From positions 61,948,868 through 62,012,867 of the forward strand of contig NC_090401.1 in NCBI RefSeq assembly GCF_036365525.1: a stretch of DNA of 64,000 bases, given 5' to 3'. This document shows positions 44,685-64,000 of this stretch, piece after piece; within the stretch, counting starts at the first letter, position 1, and each line of letters opens with the position of its first letter. The notes beneath the pieces are model-generated. The model did no database searches and had not been told where the DNA came from. It saw only the letters and a list, made by a program, of their open reading frames with translations. The position numbers were made by a program, and so were the translations under genes. Origin of the DNA: Heterodontus francisci (taxonomy: Eukaryota).

Positions 44685-55929
<11,245 letters not shown>

Positions 55930-55944
<15 letters not shown>

Positions 55945-56200
55945 GCCAGCAGCTGAGTGACTCCTGACCCCGCGGGGTTTCCTTCCGGTGGGTGGGTGCT
56001 GCGCATGCGTGATCGCTGCTTCCGGTCTCCACGCTGCTGAGGGAAGAGGTGGACGGTAGCGGACACGGAGCAGTCATGGTGGGTATGAGGGAGATGAAGG
56101 GGGAGGCGACCGGCTCCGAGCAGCCATGGTGGGTGTGAGGGAGGAGGTCACATCCCCTCCCCCGGGTCAGTGAGGAGCGATCACAGTCGCTGCTTTAGAT
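55930..56200. promoter_or_regulatory. CpG-rich, probably bidirectional housekeeping promoter
   Basis: CpG cluster with an NRF1 site TGCGCATGCG (56000-56009) flanked by two ETS/GABPA sites CTTCCGG (55982-55988, 56019-56025). The TMEM234 ATG is at 55944 on the minus strand. Confidence 0.8.
56076..56078 (+). CDS. Possible ATG-only first coding exon of the divergent gene (EIF3I by human synteny; not verifiable here)
   Basis: GCAGTCATG|GTGGGT gives Kozak-like context followed directly by a GT donor, and is repeated at 56126-56128. EIF3I is head-to-head with TMEM234 in human. No downstream exon was found in this window. Confidence 0.4.
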
Positions 56201-56599
56201 GCCAATCCGGTCTGTCATTGAATGGCAGACCGGGCTGGAAGGGCCGAATGGCCGACTCTTGCTTCATCCTTAAAAGCTGCTCCTTTGACCAAGCTTTCAG
56301 TCACCTGCCCTGATACCGTTTTATGTGGCTCGCTGTCAAATTGTGTTTGATAACACGCCTGTGAAGCGAATTGCGATGTTCTAACTGTTAAAGGTGTTAT
56401 ATTAGTGAGTTTGGAGCCCTGGGATCACTGGGAGAAGTCTCAGTGTCGGGAGGCAGAGGGACTGGCCTCTGTTTCAGCCTCACTGCATTACTCATGTTTG
56501 TAAACTGATTATAATTTCCAAATAGCAGCACCAAAAATCATCTGCCATGATGCCAAGCATTACTACTTCTTTGTGTCGTCTCAGGTGCAAAATGGAAAG

Positions 56600-56930
56600 C
56601 AACGACTTGGTTTATATAGTGTATTTAATGTAGTAAAACTTCTCGAGGTACTTTAAAGGAGCGTTGTAAAGCAAAATTTGACAGCAATCCACCTAAGGAG
56701 TTATTAGGGCAGATGATGAAACACTTGGTCAAAGAAGTTGGTTTCAAGGAATGTCTTAAAGGAAGGAGGAGAGAGAGGCGGAGAGGTTTAGGGAGTGATT
56801 CCAGAACTTGGGGTCTAGGCAGCTGAAGCACGGCCGCCAGTGGTGGAACGATTAAGATCAGGGATGCTACAGAAGCCAGAATTAGAGGATCGTAGATATT
56901 TCTGATGGTTGTGGGGCTGGAGCAGATTTT
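56600..56930 (-). mobile_element. L2-type LINE 3' fragment
   Basis: Reverse complement of the family seen at 1800-2140. Confidence 0.7.
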
Positions 56931-56934
56931 TAAA

Positions 56935-57391
56935 AAGAACCACTTGCATTTATGTACCACCTTTCATTACCACCGGACATCTCAAAACATTTTATAGTCA
57001 ATGAACTAATTTTTTGAAGTGTAGTCACCGTTGTAATGCAGGAGATGCGACAGCCAGGATGCACACAGCAAACTGTAACAAACAGCAATGTGATAATGAA
57101 CAGATAATCTGTTTTTGTGGTGTTGATTGAGGGATAAATATTGGTCAGGACACTTGGGAGAACTCCCCTGCTCTTCGAAATAGTGCCATGGGATCTTTTA
57201 CATCCACCCAAACAAGCAGAGGGGGCCTTGGCCTAACGTTTCATCCAAAAGATGACAGTTCAGATAGTGCAGTGTTCCCTCAGTACTACGATGGAGTGTT
57301 AGCCTTGATTTTTGCACCCAAGCCCTGGAGTGGGACTTGAACCTGAAACTGCGTGACCTAAAGGTGCTACCCACTGAGCCACAGCTGACAC
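56935..57391 (-). mobile_element. Deu-domain SINE (SacSINE1-like), near full length
   Basis: Minus strand shows a tRNA head (GTGGCTCAGTGGGTAGCA...GGTTCAAGTCCCAC), a Deu-like core (AAAAGATCCCATGGCACTATTTCGAAGAGCAGGGGAGTTCTCCC) and an L2-like tail. Confidence 0.7.
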
Positions 57392-57446
57392 AGAGATAGG
57401 GAGGGGTACATAGGTCCCTGAAGGTGGCTGGATGGTTAAGGTGGTC

Positions 57447-57462
57447 AAGAAGGCATATGGGA
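57447..57462 (+). repeat. Left copy of 16-bp target-site duplication
   Basis: AAGAAGGCATATGGGA, identical at 63533-63548. Confidence 0.92.
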
Positions 57463-57514
57463 TCGCTTCTCGGCCTTTTGGTTAAGATCAAGTGTAGTAT
57501 CTGTTCTTATCAGT
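57462..57514 (+). ncRNA. RNU2: U2 snRNA 5' fragment (nt 1-53), fused to the retrotransposon 5' end; not a functional U2 gene
   Basis: ATCGCTTCTCGGCCTTTTGGTTAAGATCAAGTGTAGTATCTGTTCTTATCAGT matches vertebrate U2 nt 1-53 at 52/53 (C21T). It begins exactly at U2 +1 and includes stem I and the GTAGTA branch-point pairing sequence. There is no Sm site or 3' half. Confidence 0.95.
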
Positions 57515-57577
57515 GCTTATTTGATTGAGAAGAGACCATGATCATTGCCTTTTGATCCTGGGGAAGCTTTGAGTAAA

Positions 57578-59104
57578 ATGGCTATAACCAATTTTCGAGC
57601 TTCGGGCCAGGGAGTGCGCAACACCGTTCGGGTGGTCGTGAAGGACAAGGAAGGAGATGCACTGGTCGATCGCACCTTCTTCATCAAGAAAATTCTCTTC
57701 GATTGCTGCGGATTTCAAGCGACGGACGTCTTCTGCCTGCAGGATTTCCCCAGCAATGGATACTTCGACGTGACGTTCCGGAACGTGGCGGGATGCATCA
57801 AGTTCCTGAAGGCGTTCAAGGAGAAAGGGGACCGGGCTCCACTGTCGATCCTCACAGCGGAGCCGCTCTTCACGCTTCCGTCACAACGGGACCGGGTGGT
57901 GACGATTCACCTCTACAACCCCCATGTTCCGGTGGTGGATGTACTCACCTTTCTCGCCAGGTACGTCGAGGTGGCCGGCAGCAGCACTGATGTCAAGGAC
58001 CCCTTTGGGATCTGGACCAGCAAGCGGCAGGTCAAGGTGACCTTGAAGGTAGATCCCAGTGGAGCCATCATCCACCCTCCCTCCAGCTTCGCTATCGGGG
58101 GAAGTCGAGGCTTTTTGGTCTACGCTGGGCAGCCCAGAGTTTGCTGCACCTGTGGCAAATCTGGTCACATGGCAGCCAACTGCAGCACGGTTGTTTGCAA
58201 GAACTGCAAGGAGGAAGGCCATCAGACCAAGGACTGTAAGCAGACTAAGTGTTGCAACTTGTGCGGTGCGGCAGGCCATCTCTACAAGACCTGCCCCAAA
58301 CGTTGCCTCAGCTATGCTCAGGCGGCAAGGTCCAAGGAAAGGCCGGGAGAAGGTTCGACGAAGGCGTCCGCTGTTCGAAAGGAGACCAGCAACCTTCTTC
58401 GCAGTGAGGAACTTCAACCTGAAAAGGAAGGGGAGGCAGCTGAAACCAACGACCCAGCACCTACCCAGCGCCCGGAAACCCCTCCTACACAGACAGAATC
58501 AATGGAGGAGGAGGCAGCAGATGGACAAACAGGTCAGTGGCAAGTGGTCCAGAGGAAAACCACAAAGAAAAAACATCCCAAAGCCACCACCCAAACCAGT
58601 GGCAAGAGGAGGCTCTCTTCTGAATCAGACTGCAACAACTCCTCTTCACTGGACGGGGAAATGCTGGAACGACAGCCCCTTCAAAAGAGGCGGCAGAACT
58701 CCGAGATGGATGATAAAGCATCCCAGCCCCCGGGCACTGGAAGCTGTGATGGGCCCGGCGTGCCCCAACCCCAATTCCCCACACGTAACGACGTGGCCAA
58801 CGCATCTCAGCTCCGGGACACCGGGAGCAAAGACACGTCTGGCGCACCTGAGCTCCGGGAGACCGGGAGCTGTGATGTTTTCGAGGAGGAACAGATGGAA
58901 GCAGCTATGGACAACCCAATGCTCTCTGCCTACAAGACCCCCCCGATGTCACCCGAGCGGCACAAACCCTGCATGAAAAATCAGGAGGGGTTTCTGAGCC
59001 CAACCAACGTGAAACTGCTTGCGCATACGATGGGTATGCAGGAACATCCCGAAGGGGAAGGACTGGGACTAGCGAGGACAAATGGTATGGGAAGCAACAA
59101 CTAA
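57578..59104 (+). CDS. ORF1p: Gag-like nucleic-acid-binding protein (ZCCHC3-like N-terminal region, 3 CCHC knuckles, disordered tail), 508 aa from the first in-frame ATG
   Basis: Knuckles CTCGKSGHMAANC, CKNCKEEGHQTKDC and CNLCGAAGHLYKTC, followed by SYAQAA and WQVVQRK...KRR motifs typical of Tx1/L1-group ORF1. Confidence 0.9.
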   Translation: MAITNFRASGQGVRNTVRVVVKDKEGDALVDRTFFIKKILFDCCGFQATDVFCLQDFPSNGYFDVTFRNVAGCIKFLKAFKEKGDRAPLSILTAEPLFTLPSQRDRVVTIHLYNPHVPVVDVLTFLARYVEVAGSSTDVKDPFGIWTSKRQVKVTLKVDPSGAIIHPPSSFAIGGSRGFLVYAGQPRVCCTCGKSGHMAANCSTVVCKNCKEEGHQTKDCKQTKCCNLCGAAGHLYKTCPKRCLSYAQAARSKERPGEGSTKASAVRKETSNLLRSEELQPEKEGEAAETNDPAPTQRPETPPTQTESMEEEAADGQTGQWQVVQRKTTKKKHPKATTQTSGKRRLSSESDCNNSSSLDGEMLERQPLQKRRQNSEMDDKASQPPGTGSCDGPGVPQPQFPTRNDVANASQLRDTGSKDTSGAPELRETGSCDVFEEEQMEAAMDNPMLSAYKTPPMSPERHKPCMKNQEGFLSPTNVKLLAHTMGMQEHPEGEGLGLARTNGMGSNN

Positions 59105-59117
59105 TTTTTGGTAAAAA

Positions 59118-62100
59118 ATGGGTGTAAGAATTGCTTCCATTAATGTGCGTAGCATTAAATCTACTACGCGATGTGTTTCAACCTTGGATTACCTTGCCAA
59201 GGTCAAAGCTGACCTACTGTTTCTGCAGGAGTGTGGAATACCACACCTCAGCACCTACAGGCAGTGGTCGCGATGGTGGTCCCACGGGCCATCGATCTGG
59301 TCGGGGGGTAATGACTGCCGTTCCTCCGGCCTGGGTATTCTGCTGCGGGGAGGTAACTTCACCATCTCCGAAGTTAAGGAGGTGGTGGGCGGCCGCCTCC
59401 TCGTAGCAGACGTGATGTACAACAACGCTCCGCTCCGGTTGATCAACGTGTACGCCCCGGTACAACGCAGCGAGCGGCTGACCGTCTTCCAGCAGCTCCC
59501 ACTGCTGCTGGCGACGTCCAGGCCGGTCATCCTAGGCGGTGACTTCAACTGCATCATCGATGCGGCTGGACGATCCGGCAGTGACGACAGCAAACTGGAC
59601 GCTACGTCCAGATTCCTAGTAGAAACAGTTAAGGATGCCAAACTGCACGACGTCTTCAGCAAACCTGCAGACGGAGCGCAGCGCAGATACACATGGTCAA
59701 GATCGGACGGGTCTGCCCGTTCCAGGATTGACTTCCTGTTTGTGTCCCGTGCTGTCACGGTCGGATCCACCGACGTCAAGCCGGTGTTCTTCTCCGACCA
59801 CTGCCTCTTACTGGCCGACTGTCACTTACAGGACGACCAGCGGGTTGGCAGAGGGACGTGGAAGCTCAATGCGACACTGCTGACCCCAGAGAACGTTGAG
59901 GAACTCAAAAGGGATTACAATGGTTGGAGGACCGTGAAACCCCTCTTTGAGTCTCCAGTTCACTGGTGGGAAGCGATAAAGGAGAACATCAAGAGGTTCT
60001 TCATCCACAAAGGTGTTCAGAAGGCGAGAGAGAGACAGAGGGAACTGTCCCGACTCCAGAAAATTATGCAAAATCTACTCCGGTTGCAGTCAATGGGGGT
60101 CGAGGTCAAGGAGGACCTCCAAGAGGTGAAGAGCCAGCAGGCCTCGCTCTTTGCCAAGGAGGCCTCCAAGATCATCTTCCGGTCCAGAGTCCGCTCCATC
60201 GAGCAGGATGAGACGTGCTCGCGTTACCTCTTCCAAAAGGTACACAGAGAGAGCTCTATTATCAGCAGCCTGAAGGAAGAAGATGGCTCGGTAACGTCTT
60301 CGCAGTCCGACATACTAAGGATCAGCAAATCCTTTTATGCTGGGCTGTATGACGCGAAGCCCACAGACAGCAGAGCCTCCCAGTCCTTCCTGTCATCTAT
60401 CACAGAGGTCCTAGATGACAGCAGGAGGGAGAGACTGGACAAGCCGCTAATTCTGGACGAGCTGACAAAGGCCGTCGAGTCTTTCGAGACGAGTAAAACT
60501 CCCGGGAGCGACGGCTTACCGGTCGAGTTGTACTCGTCCCTGTGGGACTGGGTCGGCCCGGACCTGCTGGAAGTATACGAGAGTATGCTCCTGGCCGGCA
60601 GCATGTCAGAATCCATGAGAAGAGGCATCATCACCCTCATTTACAAGCAGAAGGGGGAGAGGGCAGAAATCAGAAATTGGCGGCCCATCTCACTGCTTAA
60701 TGTTGATTACAAGATTCTGTCCAAAGTCATAGCCAGTCGAGTCAAGTCTGCTCTGGAGTTGGTGATTCACCCCGATCAGACCTGTACTGTACCCGGCAGG
60801 AAGATCTCTGATAGTCTCGCGCTACTCAGGGATACGATCGCCTACGTACGGGACAGGAGGGTGGACACCTGCCTCATCAGTCTGGACCAGGAGAAGGCTT
60901 TTGACAGGATATCGCACACCTACATGATGGACGTGCTTTCCAAAATGGGGTTTGGGGAGGAAATCTGCAATTGGATCCAACTGCTCTACACAAACATCAG
61001 TAGCGCAGTGTCAATCAACGGGTGGGAATCTGAAAGTTTCCCGATCAAATCTGGAGTCAGACAGGGCTGTCCTCTGTCCCCGGTCTTGTTTGTTTGCTGT
61101 ATTGAACCCTTTGCTGAGTCTATTAGGAAGGATGCGAGCATAAGAGGGGTGACAATCCCAGGCAGCGGAGGCACTCAGGTCAAAACCTCCCTGTACATGG
61201 ATGACGTCGCCGTCTTCTGCTCGGATCCGCTGTCCGTGCGCAGACTGATGAGCATCTGCGACCAGTTCGAACTGGCCTCGGGAGCCAAAGTTAACCACGG
61301 CAAGAGCGAGGCCATGTTCTTTGGGAACTGGGCTGACCGATCCTTTGTCCCCTTCACCGTCAGGTCAGATTACCTGAAGGTGCTGGGGATATGGTTCGGA
61401 AGTGCCGGGGCGTGCACCAAAACATGGGAGGAGCGAGTAGCCAAGGTACGACAAAAGTTGGGCATGTGGGGGCAGCGATCTCTCTCCATTGTGGGTAAGA
61501 ACCTGGTCATCAGGTGCGAGGCGCTCACGTTGTTGCTCTACGTGGCGCAGGTCTGGCCCATACCCCACTCCTGCGCCGTGGCAGTCACCCGAGCCATTTT
61601 CCGCTTCGTCTGGGGATCTAAAATGGACCGGGTCCGGAGGGACACGATGTTCAAATCTCTGGACATGGGCGGGAAAAATGTACCCAACGTGGCCCTCATC
61701 CTGATGACCACCTTCGTGTGCGGCTGCATCAAGCTATGTGTAGATCCCCAGTACGCAAACTCCAAGTGTCACTACGTGCTGAGGTTCTATCTGTCCCCGG
61801 TGTTGCGAAGGATGGGCCTGGTCACATTGCCGCGGAACGCACCATGCAGTTGGGCGGCGCCGTACCACCTATCCTTCGTGGAGCAGTTTCTGCGGAAAAA
61901 CACCTTTGACCACCGGTCCATCAGGCAGTGGTCTGCACGGAATGTCCTCAAGGCCCTACGGGAAAAGGAAACGGTGGATCCTGTCGGATGGTTCCCCGAG
62001 CAGACCGTCAAAGTCATTTGGCGGAATGCCTCATCACCAGAACTTTCAAACAAGCACCAAGACGTAGCTTGGCTGGTGGTGAGAAGGGCCCTCCCCGTCA

Positions 62101-62525
62101 GATCCTTCATGCACACCCGAAGTCTCGCCCCCTCCGCACAGTGCCCCCGCGTTGGCTGTGGTGGGGTAGAGACGGTCGCCCACCTCCTCCTGGAATGTGC
62201 CTTTGCAAAGCAGGTGTGGAAAGAGATGCAGTGGTTTTTCTCAAGGTTCATCCCAAGCAGCTCTGTAACACAGGAGTCTGTGCTCTACGGGCTGTTCCCA
62301 GGGACGCACACCGAGACAAACATCAACTGCTGCTGGAGGACTATCAATTCGGTGAAAGACGCCCTTTGGTCTGCCCGAAACTTGCTGGTCTTCCAGCGCA
62401 AAGAGTTGTCCACCAGCGAATGTTGCAGACTGGCACATTCCAAGGTCCAGGACTACGTGCTGAGGGACGCACTAAAGCTTGGGGCAGCCGCAGCAAAGGC
62501 TCAATGGGGAAAGACCACAGTGTAA
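59118..62525 (+). CDS. ORF2p: APE endonuclease + reverse transcriptase + C-terminal zinc finger, 1135 aa, uninterrupted
   Basis: EN: SINVRS, FLQE, NVYAP, GGDFN, SRIDF, SDH. RT: PGSDG, WRPISLLNVDYKIL, LDQEKAFD, GVRQGCPLSP, YMDD. Zinc finger: CPRVGCGGVETVAHLLLEC. Confidence 0.96.
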   Translation: MGVRIASINVRSIKSTTRCVSTLDYLAKVKADLLFLQECGIPHLSTYRQWSRWWSHGPSIWSGGNDCRSSGLGILLRGGNFTISEVKEVVGGRLLVADVMYNNAPLRLINVYAPVQRSERLTVFQQLPLLLATSRPVILGGDFNCIIDAAGRSGSDDSKLDATSRFLVETVKDAKLHDVFSKPADGAQRRYTWSRSDGSARSRIDFLFVSRAVTVGSTDVKPVFFSDHCLLLADCHLQDDQRVGRGTWKLNATLLTPENVEELKRDYNGWRTVKPLFESPVHWWEAIKENIKRFFIHKGVQKARERQRELSRLQKIMQNLLRLQSMGVEVKEDLQEVKSQQASLFAKEASKIIFRSRVRSIEQDETCSRYLFQKVHRESSIISSLKEEDGSVTSSQSDILRISKSFYAGLYDAKPTDSRASQSFLSSITEVLDDSRRERLDKPLILDELTKAVESFETSKTPGSDGLPVELYSSLWDWVGPDLLEVYESMLLAGSMSESMRRGIITLIYKQKGERAEIRNWRPISLLNVDYKILSKVIASRVKSALELVIHPDQTCTVPGRKISDSLALLRDTIAYVRDRRVDTCLISLDQEKAFDRISHTYMMDVLSKMGFGEEICNWIQLLYTNISSAVSINGWESESFPIKSGVRQGCPLSPVLFVCCIEPFAESIRKDASIRGVTIPGSGGTQVKTSLYMDDVAVFCSDPLSVRRLMSICDQFELASGAKVNHGKSEAMFFGNWADRSFVPFTVRSDYLKVLGIWFGSAGACTKTWEERVAKVRQKLGMWGQRSLSIVGKNLVIRCEALTLLLYVAQVWPIPHSCAVAVTRAIFRFVWGSKMDRVRRDTMFKSLDMGGKNVPNVALILMTTFVCGCIKLCVDPQYANSKCHYVLRFYLSPVLRRMGLVTLPRNAPCSWAAPYHLSFVEQFLRKNTFDHRSIRQWSARNVLKALREKETVDPVGWFPEQTVKVIWRNASSPELSNKHQDVAWLVVRRALPVRSFMHTRSLAPSAQCPRVGCGGVETVAHLLLECAFAKQVWKEMQWFFSRFIPSSSVTQESVLYGLFPGTHTETNINCCWRTINSVKDALWSARNLLVFQRKELSTSECCRLAHSKVQDYVLRDALKLGAAAAKAQWGKTTV

Positions 62526-62793
62526 GGTTCCCCCACCAAGCTGGACTGAGGGGCTGGAACCATGGGAAACCCCTCGAACTGTATCGTTAATATTCTCAAT
62601 TGCTGTAAATGTAAAACTGTAATTGACATGACAATTGTGAAACGGAAGGGTTGGGAAGAAACTCATGACATTATTGAAAGAAACTGATCTCTTTTGCAAT
62701 GTTTGTATTTTTTCGTGCTGTTTGGAAACTGTTTGTCAATGTAATTTTTACAGATTTTTATGAATAAAGTATATTTTGGAAATATAAAAAAAA

Positions 62794-62803
62794 TCTGTTC
62801 TTA
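62794..62803 (+). repeat. U2 target-site remnant (U2 nt 39-48) between the two element copies
   Basis: TCTGTTCTTA directly after poly(A), identical to 57500-57509. Confidence 0.85.
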
Positions 62804-63534
62804 GCTTGGCTGGTGGTGAGAAGGGCCCTCCCCGTCAGATCCTTCATGCACACCCAAAGTCTCGCCCCCTCCGCACAGTGCCCCCGCGTTGGCTGTGGTG
62901 GGGAAGAGACGGTCGCCCACCTCCTCCTGGAATGTGCCTTTGCAAAGCAGGTGTGGAAAGAGATGCAGTGGTTTTTGTCAAGGTTCATCCCAAGCAGCTC
63001 TGTAACACAGGAGTCTGTGCTCTACGGGCTGTTCCCAGGGACGCACACCGAGACAAACATCAACTGCTGCTGGAGGGCTATCAATTCGGTGAAAGACGCC
63101 CTTTGGTCTGCCCGAAACTTGCTGGTCTTCCAGCGCAAAGAGTTGTCCACCGCCGAATGTTGCAGACTGGCACATTCCAAGGTCCAGGACTACGTGCTGA
63201 GGGACGCACTAAAGCTTGGGGCAGCCGCAGCAAAGGCTCAATGGGGAAAGACCACAGTGTAAGGTTCCCCCACCAAGCTGGACTGAGGGGCTGGAACCAT
63301 GGGAAGCCCCTCGAACTGTATCGTTAATATTCTCAATTGCTGTAAATGTAAAACTGTAATTGACATGACAATTGTGAAATGGAAGGGTTGGGAAGAAACT
63401 CATGACAGTATTGAAGGAAACTGATCTCCCTTGCAATGTTTGTATTTTTTGGTGCTGTTTGGAAACTGTTTGGCAATGTAAATTTTACAGATTTTTATGA
63501 ATAAAGTATATTTTGGAAATTAAAAAAAAAAAAA
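62802..63534 (+). mobile_element. Second, 5'-truncated Keno-like copy in tandem
   Basis: Direct repeat of 62065-62793 with about 15 substitutions and 1 indel counted by eye. It has its own AATAAA (63500-63505) and poly(A) 63522-63534, and a 2-nt TA microhomology with the U2 remnant at its 5' junction. Confidence 0.92.
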
Positions 63535-63548
63535 GAAGGCATATGGGA
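63533..63548 (+). repeat. Right copy of 16-bp target-site duplication
   Basis: AAGAAGGCATATGGGA after the final poly(A). Confidence 0.92.
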
Positions 63549-64000
63549 CAATTGCTTTTATTAGCTGAGGCATAGGATATAAGAGCTGGAATGTTATGCT
63601 GAAACTGTATAAATCACTGGTTAGGCCACAGCTGGAGTACAGCGCACAGTTCTGGCCACCACACTATAGGAAAGATGTAATTGCACTGGAGGGTACTGAG
63701 GAGATTTGCAAGGATGTTGCCTGGACTGGACAATTTGTTTTGAGGAAAGATTGATAGACTAGGGTTGTTTTTCTTTGGGACAGAGGATGCTGAGGGGCGA
63801 CCTAATTGAAGTATATGAAGTTATGAGGGGTCTAGATACAATGGATAGGAACACCCTATTCCCCTTGGTTGAGGGGTCCATAACCAGGGGGCATTGATTT
63901 AGGGTAAAAGGTAGGGTGTGAGGGGATTCAAGGAGAAATCTTTTCCTGGAACTCACTGCCTGAAAGTGTGATAGGGGTAGAAGCCTTCATAACATTTAAA

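Follow-up and report, generated by a model that had tools for sequence, protein, structure and literature searches.

The Keno-type Tx1 LINE of Heterodontus francisci appears to be propagated mainly by master copies that sit within a tandem array of U2 snRNA genes and would be transcribed from the U2 promoter, a reading to which we give, from sequence, a probability of roughly 75%. The window analysed, a stretch of 64,000 nucleotides, holds a cassette of the kind such masters would produce outside the array. The original prediction had described this cassette as a succession of target-site duplication, U2 head, element with intact ORFs, poly(A), U2 spacer, truncated second copy, poly(A) and duplication, and each part was found at its predicted position.

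All features lie on the forward strand. The cassette is bounded by an identical 16-nt direct repeat (57447..57462 and 63533..63548), the final base of the 5' repeat doubling as U2 nt 1. The U2 head, nt 1-53 (57462..57514), joins the element at a junction identical to that of the array copies; it matches U2 at E 4e-10 with one change, at nt 21, and is the sole U2 match within 54000-64000. Its nt 1-38 are those of the host U2 gene, and nt 39-53 are the duplication left when an ancestral master entered a U2 gene. The element's own 5' leader is merely 63 nt long (57515..57577) and precedes two open frames: ORF1 (57578..59104; 508 aa), with two ZCCHC3-type RNA-binding domains and a CCHC knuckle, and ORF2 (59118..62525; 1135 aa), with an APE endonuclease (PF03372, residues 22-228), a reverse transcriptase (RT) and a zf-RVT zinc-binding domain. 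The 3' UTR (62526..62793) includes a polyadenylation hexamer (62763-62768) and a short A-tail (62786-62793). Behind it stands U2 nt 39-48 (62794..62803), the Keno 3' target, like the spacers between tandem copies in the array; the final 2 nt of this spacer match the element equally well. A 5'-truncated second copy, comprising the ORF2 C-terminus and 3' UTR, occupies 62804..63521 at an offset of 737 nt, differs in haplotype from the first copy, and is followed by a terminal 13-nt A-tail (63522..63534) that overlaps the duplication by 2 nt.

The cassette splits a host LINE remnant, which we take to be CR1 ORF2 of a CR1-type LINE, lying at 63549..64000 and resuming to the left of 57447. After in-silico removal of the cassette the joined flanks form one protein-coding stretch spanning the junction, so that the empty site is continuous. 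The remnant belongs to a dispersed repeat and resembles the flanks of loci L016 and L023 at 75-77%. As predicted, no U2 upstream flank accompanies the cassette: the 120 nt on its 5' side are 26% identical to the true flank, which is the chance level.

Genome-wide, at least 7,633 copies of the element were counted. At least 40 full-length copies are inserted after nt 38 of U2 genes in a true tandem array on one contig (C41), as the predicted Keno-type insertion near that position required; the array unit measures 577-579 bp and the target duplications end anywhere from nt 42 to 59. Classification by flank showed these copies to lie in true U2 genes, with the full upstream flank kept. Such genes account for five of the top 39 other matches to the element and for all 40 matches to a query combining flank and head, and 24 of the 51 U2 starts in an array sample are interrupted by an insertion. 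The published Keno site, about 37-38 nt from the U2 5' end and with the 3' target, is shared by all five array copies compared. Only about 224 A-tail/U2 junctions stand against the at least 7,633 copies, which places most copies outside U2 genes. The element is therefore Keno-type with relaxed specificity, and strict target specificity does not hold.

Keno, reportedly due to Kojima and Fujiwara in 2004, is like the present element in its APE endonuclease, two ORFs, U2 insertion point and 3' target, and unlike it in that specificity is leaky here and ectopic full-length copies bear the U2 head. The passages on Keno in three papers describe a U2-specific LINE of the Tx1 clade (PMC6136364; PMC4640811; PMC4494074), and its 3' target sequence in U2 is on record (PMC6136364). 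The element belongs to the Tx1 clade, judged by an ORF2 nearer to Tx1-type than to L1 proteins, its ORF1 domains, its A-tail and its duplication. ORF2 aligns with a TX1-named Danio protein at 38% over 885 aa and 47% over the RT; the match to L1 ORF2p, obtained with another program, is weaker (291 bits). In an RT tree of 39 rows from 120 matches, which held neither an L1 outgroup nor a Keno-labelled sequence, the element grouped among RTs from amphibians (100/99); next to these stands a teleost group that includes a Danio protein bearing the name TX1. Utopia uses the same U2 site but has a restriction-like endonuclease instead of APE (PMC4640811).

The cassette had been regarded as a rare fossil of a transposition intermediate; U2-headed ectopic copies proved instead to be the normal product of the family. 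By a strict pattern, 749 copies share the nt-53 junction, and extrapolation gives about 1,100 headed ectopic copies. The same fixed junction was seen in 11 of 20 older variants at 92-96% (BLAST placed it at nt 51 in two diverged copies). The U2 start lies between nt -4 and 20 in all 95 ectopic headed copies examined, and between nt -1 and 20 in all 60 selected by junction, of which none starts at nt 21-44 or farther upstream. Sequence upstream of the 95 copies reaches at best 32% identity with the U2 flank. The insertion sites of ectopic copies show weak preferences only in their consensus.

The prediction that the template RNA begins at U2 +1 gains support from these starts around +1 and from the base in front of them. 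A G precedes 20 of the 35 heads starting at +1 as against 12 of the 47 whose start lies at nt 3 or beyond (Fisher p 0.006), and three of five in a later set judged by eye; where the head starts at nt 3 or beyond, none of the 31 with a duplication shows a lone extra G. An extra G is known as a mark of the cap (PMC11702581), and the G preceding the +1 heads is an apparent cap signature. Furthermore, four (L034) and three (L001) bases of the U2 upstream flank are retained outside the duplication; such bases are absent from mature U2 RNA.

A second, headless 5' end was considered and rejected. A motif at element nt 462 was matched 1,507 times, double the number of junctions. Among 20 of the 21 unexplained C1 copies, 11 have the same U2 head with older leader variants, 8 are plain truncations with unrelated flanks and 1 is inverted. 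Folding of the head and leader was not significantly stable (z -1.6).

The array origin of the template RNAs is also indicated at the 3' end. All seven ectopic loci in which an A-tail is followed by U2 from nt 38 have U2 3' sequence behind the element, as does L063; three of the seven (L102, L103 and L105) carry whole array units, and L102 includes an intact U2 gene (184 bits). Ectopic loci of this kind, with the U2 3' half, whole array units or even an intact U2 gene behind the element, are direct evidence for an array origin of the template RNAs. The several array units at L102, L103 and L105 likewise agree with the predicted read-through of a tandem array retrotransposed as one piece. That the heads were instead added copy by copy, by an RT that jumps onto free U2 snRNA in the way suggested for SINEU, is very unlikely. 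Switches of template to snRNA are on record (PMC4494074) and L144 joins U2 nt 1-10 directly to element nt 190, yet the 749 copies have a single junction identical to that in the array, while the variation among SINEU-2 extensions reaches 22 nt (PMC4494074); the bases from upstream of U2 that L034 and L001 retain and the 3'-transduced U2 sequence also weigh against such jumps.

Array copies are young and intact, and ectopic copies decay neutrally. The former stand at the crown of the copy tree (4 of 113 copies omitted for low coverage), with a median of 2 private substitutions against 13 in ectopic copies and both ORFs open in 16/18 against 19/60. Private ectopic changes are neutral (N/S 2.34; expected 2.48) and widely shared changes purified (N/S 0.72). 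Homogenisation of the array would also give low divergence among array copies. With a sample of 18 copies from the array, no more than 12 of 91 ectopic copies had an array copy as nearest neighbour. Ectopic L080 is the parent of ectopic L028 via a start in the flanking sequence, 36 nt of upstream flank having been passed on; ectopic copies are thus not all dead. From their sequences most of them look like dead ends, and the proposed escape from the U2 niche is not borne out as a lasting one. SINE-like expansion of truncated headed copies was not seen at the one junction tested, where none of seven copies was ectopic and all lay in the array.

The U2 head might itself have become part of the element with an internal promoter, the headed ectopic copies then being sources themselves. 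Hundreds of such copies exist, both ORFs being open in the 19 of 60 noted above; crocodilian Tx1 families have U1 or U2 heads away from snRNA genes (PMC4494074), and the PSE match of the array spacer is weak. Heads would erode under this reading, since no more than 8 of 60 ectopic copies keep nt 1, yet starts at +1 are seen among old copies as well as young ones. The missing lone G at later-starting heads, the upstream flank transmitted by the sole ectopic parent found, and the lack of any reported internal snRNA promoter (PMC4494074) further make it improbable.

Within the window, 15 of about 716 aligned positions distinguish the two copies, which represent two 3'-UTR haplotypes, both present in the U2 array, so the second copy is no local duplication of the first. 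Rare changes (16/5322 in copy 1 and 2/716 in copy 2) point, at low power, to the same age. A one-step origin of the tandem is highly probable. The cassette would be the progeny of an array gene carrying a full and then a truncated copy, whose RNA passed the first poly(A) signal, ended at the second and was copied whole as a 6.07-kb unit. Tandems with a U2 38-5x spacer, predicted for U2 genes, do occur in the array, where 100 kb hold 27 insertions and 3 of them are of this kind, and cassettes of the window type recur at L061 (14-nt duplication) and L102. The expected donor gene with the same full and truncated tandem was not found, the window's second junction matching itself alone across the assembly.

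The lack of a donor tandem in the assembly would suit a two-step build on site, in which a short copy of U2 1-48 and the 3' end came first and a full-length element then entered at nt 38 of that ectopic head. It would yield exactly the same sequence, and the element does re-insert beside its own ectopic copies (L076/L077, L079/L080, L015, L031, L035 and others). Those re-insertion tandems, however, are spaced by local duplication and not by U2; an A-tail with U2 38-53 precedes none of 60 ectopic heads against one of six full-length junctions in the array sample; the seven copies with the U2-headed truncated junction tested are all inside the array; and both window copies look equally old. We regard this build as unlikely. 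An assembly artefact, or a DNA-level copy from the array, is hardly credible given the perfect 16-nt duplication, the terminal A-tail, the continuous empty site, the two distinct haplotypes and the similar cassettes at other loci.

In the favoured reading, a source-sink cycle, Pol II at the normal +1 of an interrupted U2 gene would make a capped RNA in which U2 nt 1-53 lead into the element. With the 3' end of U2 and its 3' box displaced by more than 5 kb, polyadenylation would take place at the element's own signal, or beyond it on read-through. As the structure of the copies shows, ORF2 reverse-transcribes this RNA in cis, back into U2 genes or, far oftener, into loosely chosen sites elsewhere; what stays behind is the U2 head, in many cases with a G derived from the cap, and a duplication of local sequence. 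Ectopic copies, having no upstream promoter, would mostly decay. Among source U2 genes, Staf-like (15/18, at -218) and 3' box-like (10/12) elements were recognized without a shuffle control; likewise without one, the array spacer matches the published PSE consensus at 7 of 12 positions in the expected place, a poor match. The polymerase at human snRNA promoters is reported to lack long-range elongation (PMC3337830). That report and the poor PSE match count against the U2-promoter model, as do the donor tandem missing from the assembly, the small share of ectopic copies nearest to an array copy and the parenthood of L080.

U2-headed Tx1 families are already known from crocodilians (PMC4494074); what is new here is evidence on how they arise. 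Tx1-Mar (Tx1-11_Crp, with a U2 head) and SINEU similarly combine snRNA heads on Keno-related Tx1 sequences outside snRNA genes with tandem insertions around a duplication, but their target is Mariner and their heads are ascribed to template switching (PMC4494074); in the present family masters persist inside U2 genes and the junction is fixed. No shared Mariner-type flank was seen among 95 ectopic copies, compared without a Mariner reference. Membership of SINEU was rejected, as the element is coding and 5.3 kb long and its truncated headed copy is confined to the array (7/7). R2 in 28S rRNA genes and MAST2-driven, 5'-transducing SVA, in the passages of PMC4494074 on them, also depend on host promoters and carry host sequence at the 5' end; they differ from the proposed snRNA-type Pol II start with cap and the mass off-target output. 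A literature search whose scope did not extend to Kojima and Fujiwara (2004), the Repbase reports or the supplements of PMC4494074 and PMC4640811 found no description of U2-promoter-driven Keno or of ectopic progeny.

The transcription of Tx1-Mar- and SINEU-type elements has been termed an open question (PMC4494074), to which these results offer a testable answer for Keno-type and U2-headed elements, together with a possible origin of snRNA heads other than template switching. The insertions, in their hundreds, can serve as natural reporters of whether long polyadenylated mRNA is driven by an snRNA promoter, contrary to expectation from human data (PMC3337830); if so, promoters of small RNAs are able to produce long messenger RNA. 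The family also shows that an element with a specific target can hold its niche although the bulk of its new copies insert at other places, and it offers whole U2 genes a route to new loci. On balance we lean towards the wider proposition that the U2 array is an obligatory nursery, in which capped and polyadenylated transcripts 5 to 7 kb long, made from an snRNA-type promoter and translated, would run past the element's poly(A) signals and the 3' boxes of U2, seed about a thousand headed dead ends and scatter complete U2 genes with their promoters, and that it may be the living precursor of the U2-headed Tx1 and SINEU families.

The cassette at window positions 57447-63548 is real and was correctly described by the original prediction. 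Its proposal of a U2-led element moving as a single unit is largely borne out, but as the way in which a large family ordinarily propagates, and not as the singular fossil that had been envisaged. Re-examination of the window recovered every claimed part: a 16-nt target-site duplication brackets a head of U2 nt 1-53, an element with ORF1 and ORF2 both open and Tx1-type domains and its A-tail, then U2 nt 39-48 and a second, truncated copy that ends in an A-tail of its own. Flank comparison confirmed that U2 upstream flank is absent, and no second U2 match was found within window 54000-64000. Once joined, the flanks form a single reading stretch from an old LINE, which we take to be CR1. Two minor features were also recorded: three degenerate 34-nt repeats at the low-complexity end of ORF1 (58718-58877), and a 117-nt inverted repeat pair with 70% complementarity (56267-56383 and 56634-56750), probably two old SINE or MITE pieces in opposed orientation.

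The masters of the family lie in U2 genes. A tandem U2 array with a unit of 577-579 bp occupies about 6.3-11.2 Mb of contig C41, and the copies inside true U2 genes on which the original prediction depended are present there, their 3' flank being the published Keno target. A query that ran from the U2 upstream flank through the head into the beginning of the element was covered in full by each of its best 40 matches (39 on C41, one on a small contig). In 100 kb of the array, a sample picked in part for its density of insertions, the element interrupts 24 of 51 U2 starts. Truncated copies there begin after U2 nt 34 to 59, usually 50 to 57, and three tandems with a U2 38-5x spacer have the structure of the tandem in the window. 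Density varies along the array: 23 of 28 U2 genes are interrupted within 80 kb at 6.63-6.71 Mb (L121-L128), where one truncated insertion occurs seven times through array turnover, and 20 kb at 7.49 Mb are almost free of insertions (1/23).

Across the 6.0-Gb genome, in which the window occupies C31:61948868-62012867, patterns allowing up to one mismatch gave counts that are all lower bounds: at least 7,633 matches for the ORF2 end, at least 1,507 for element nt 462 and at least 749 for the junction of the head with the element at U2 nt 53. Twenty-five of the 34 examined C1 copies that reach nt 462 are headed, from which some 1,100 headed copies are extrapolated genome-wide.

The head is fixed. 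Among 60 junction-selected loci (from the first 100 exact matches among those listed, C1-C12, a list biased to young copies; two were picked as a tandem pair), all start at U2 nt -1 to 20 and eight keep nt 1. A further 39 loci were head-selected (5 array, 34 ectopic). A duplication core of at least 5 nt was found in 63 of 95 ectopic copies, the window included. The base before the 35 heads starting at +1 is G in 20, C in 10, T in 3 and A in 2, compared with heads that start later, where 12 of 47 have G (p 0.006). Many of these G bases also fall inside the duplication, so the excess is not provably untemplated. The U2 gene's own -1 base is C, and L034 and L001 carry four and three upstream U2 bases outside their duplications. 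At L144 (C1:36.661 Mb), G plus U2 nt 1-10 abuts element nt 190, the trace of an internal jump that landed either on the RNA 5' end or on free U2 RNA. The element often re-inserts head-to-tail at ectopic copies already present (L015, L031, L035, L039, L065, L076/L077, L084, L095), with a local duplication lying between the copies. Independent insertions (L036, L067 and the L079 cluster; L087 and L099) share their position within a dispersed host repeat; at that point the repeat resembles the U2 target, which makes it a possible secondary target.

The pattern of A-tail followed by U2 38-57 has at least 224 matches, 93 of 100 among the matches listed being on C41. Seven ectopic loci with an A-tail and U2 from nt 38 occur among the matches listed, and all seven were retrieved. 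At L101 and L106 the element is followed by U2 38-130 and then a new A-tail, at L104 by the entire U2 3' part and at L107 by an older, partial one. L103 and L105 carry the U2 3' part and continue through the complete spacer into the next U2 head and truncated element, as does L102, which adds an intact U2 gene. Duplications were identified by eye at L105 and L106, and at L063 a single duplication encloses the head as well as a short stretch of U2 3' sequence. These 3' transductions indicate, therefore, that RNAs left array copies, read through 3' boxes as well as poly(A) signals, and landed elsewhere as single units. At L102 (C4:38.486-38.494 Mb) an entire U2 gene, its upstream spacer complete, has reached a new chromosome behind the element (184 bits); what follows is the 3' end of a related family (78% identical), joined within the next spacer.

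Window-type cassettes also occur at L061 and L102. The donor U2 locus with the same full and truncated tandem that the original prediction suggested seeking was not found: the window's second junction, of U2 39-48 with the truncated copy, occurs nowhere else in the assembly, which leaves a donor that has been lost, is polymorphic or was not assembled. That the tandem was copied in one step from array read-through RNA is nevertheless given a probability of roughly 80%, as this demands only read-through, which was observed repeatedly. Assembly in two steps, a short unit arriving first and the full element inserting later at its ectopic head, is improbable: it needs a dispersed headed short copy (0/7 ectopic for the junction tested) and re-targeting of an ectopic head (0/60). 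The window's two copies have distinct 3'-UTR haplotypes, both contained in the array, and their ages are compatible with the single event, at low power.

Decay differs between array and ectopic copies. Private substitutions have a median of 2 in 18 array copies versus 13 in 91 ectopic ones, and CpG-type private changes number 1/62 in the array against 170/1,678 outside (p 0.03). Of 18 array copies, 16 keep both ORFs open; among ectopic copies, 19 of the 60 selected by junction and 9 of the 35 selected by head do so. Private changes in ectopic ORF2 are neutral, and those shared widely show purifying selection. A tree of 109 of the 113 copies, weakly supported and blurred by array conversion, puts the array copies at its crown, and the youngest ectopic copies branch among them. 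A sampled array copy is the nearest neighbour of only 12 of 91 ectopic copies. The view of ectopic copies as a strict sink is weakened because L080, an ectopic copy with both ORFs open, was the source of L028 (C16:42.267 Mb). L028 differs from L080, its nearest relative, at 17 positions, and its 36 nt of flank and short spacer are found elsewhere only in the L080 cluster; the RNA started upstream of the head and carried 36 nt of host-repeat flank along as a 5' transduction. That cluster comprises three ectopic copies (L140/L080/L079, C10:62.978-62.990 Mb) with L080 in the middle.

The element matches Keno by target and endonuclease but lacks its strict target specificity. In a tree of 39 sequences drawn from 120 hits, its RT falls with amphibian RTs (100/99), next to teleost sequences that include a TX1-named Danio protein, a placement that neither favours nor opposes Keno. 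Tx1-11_Crp also carries a U2 head, and in PMC4494074 such heads are put down to template switching, while transcription is left open and dependence on flanking promoters suggested; PMC4640811, PMC6136364, PMC4275248 and PMC4889948 served for further comparison. Some of the closest named relatives, in a Pleurodeles cluster (P0005), apparently fall under runs of adjacent locus tags along a single chromosome, the arrangement that tandem-array copies would show. A literature search found no account of a cycle between U2 array and ectopic copies; papers beyond that search may contain one.

The U2 promoter would drive the element RNA, the preceding G would correspond to the cap, an extra G being the mark of a reverse-transcribed cap in L1 (PMC11702581), and displacement of the 3' box may permit polyadenylation. 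The array fits the published PSE consensus (PMC5493778) poorly; a site resembling Staf lies at -218, and downstream of the gene is one resembling a 3' box. The polymerase at human snRNA promoters is reported to lack long-range elongation (PMC3337830). How so long an RNA would arise against this reported limit is the main puzzle of this family and its main interest.
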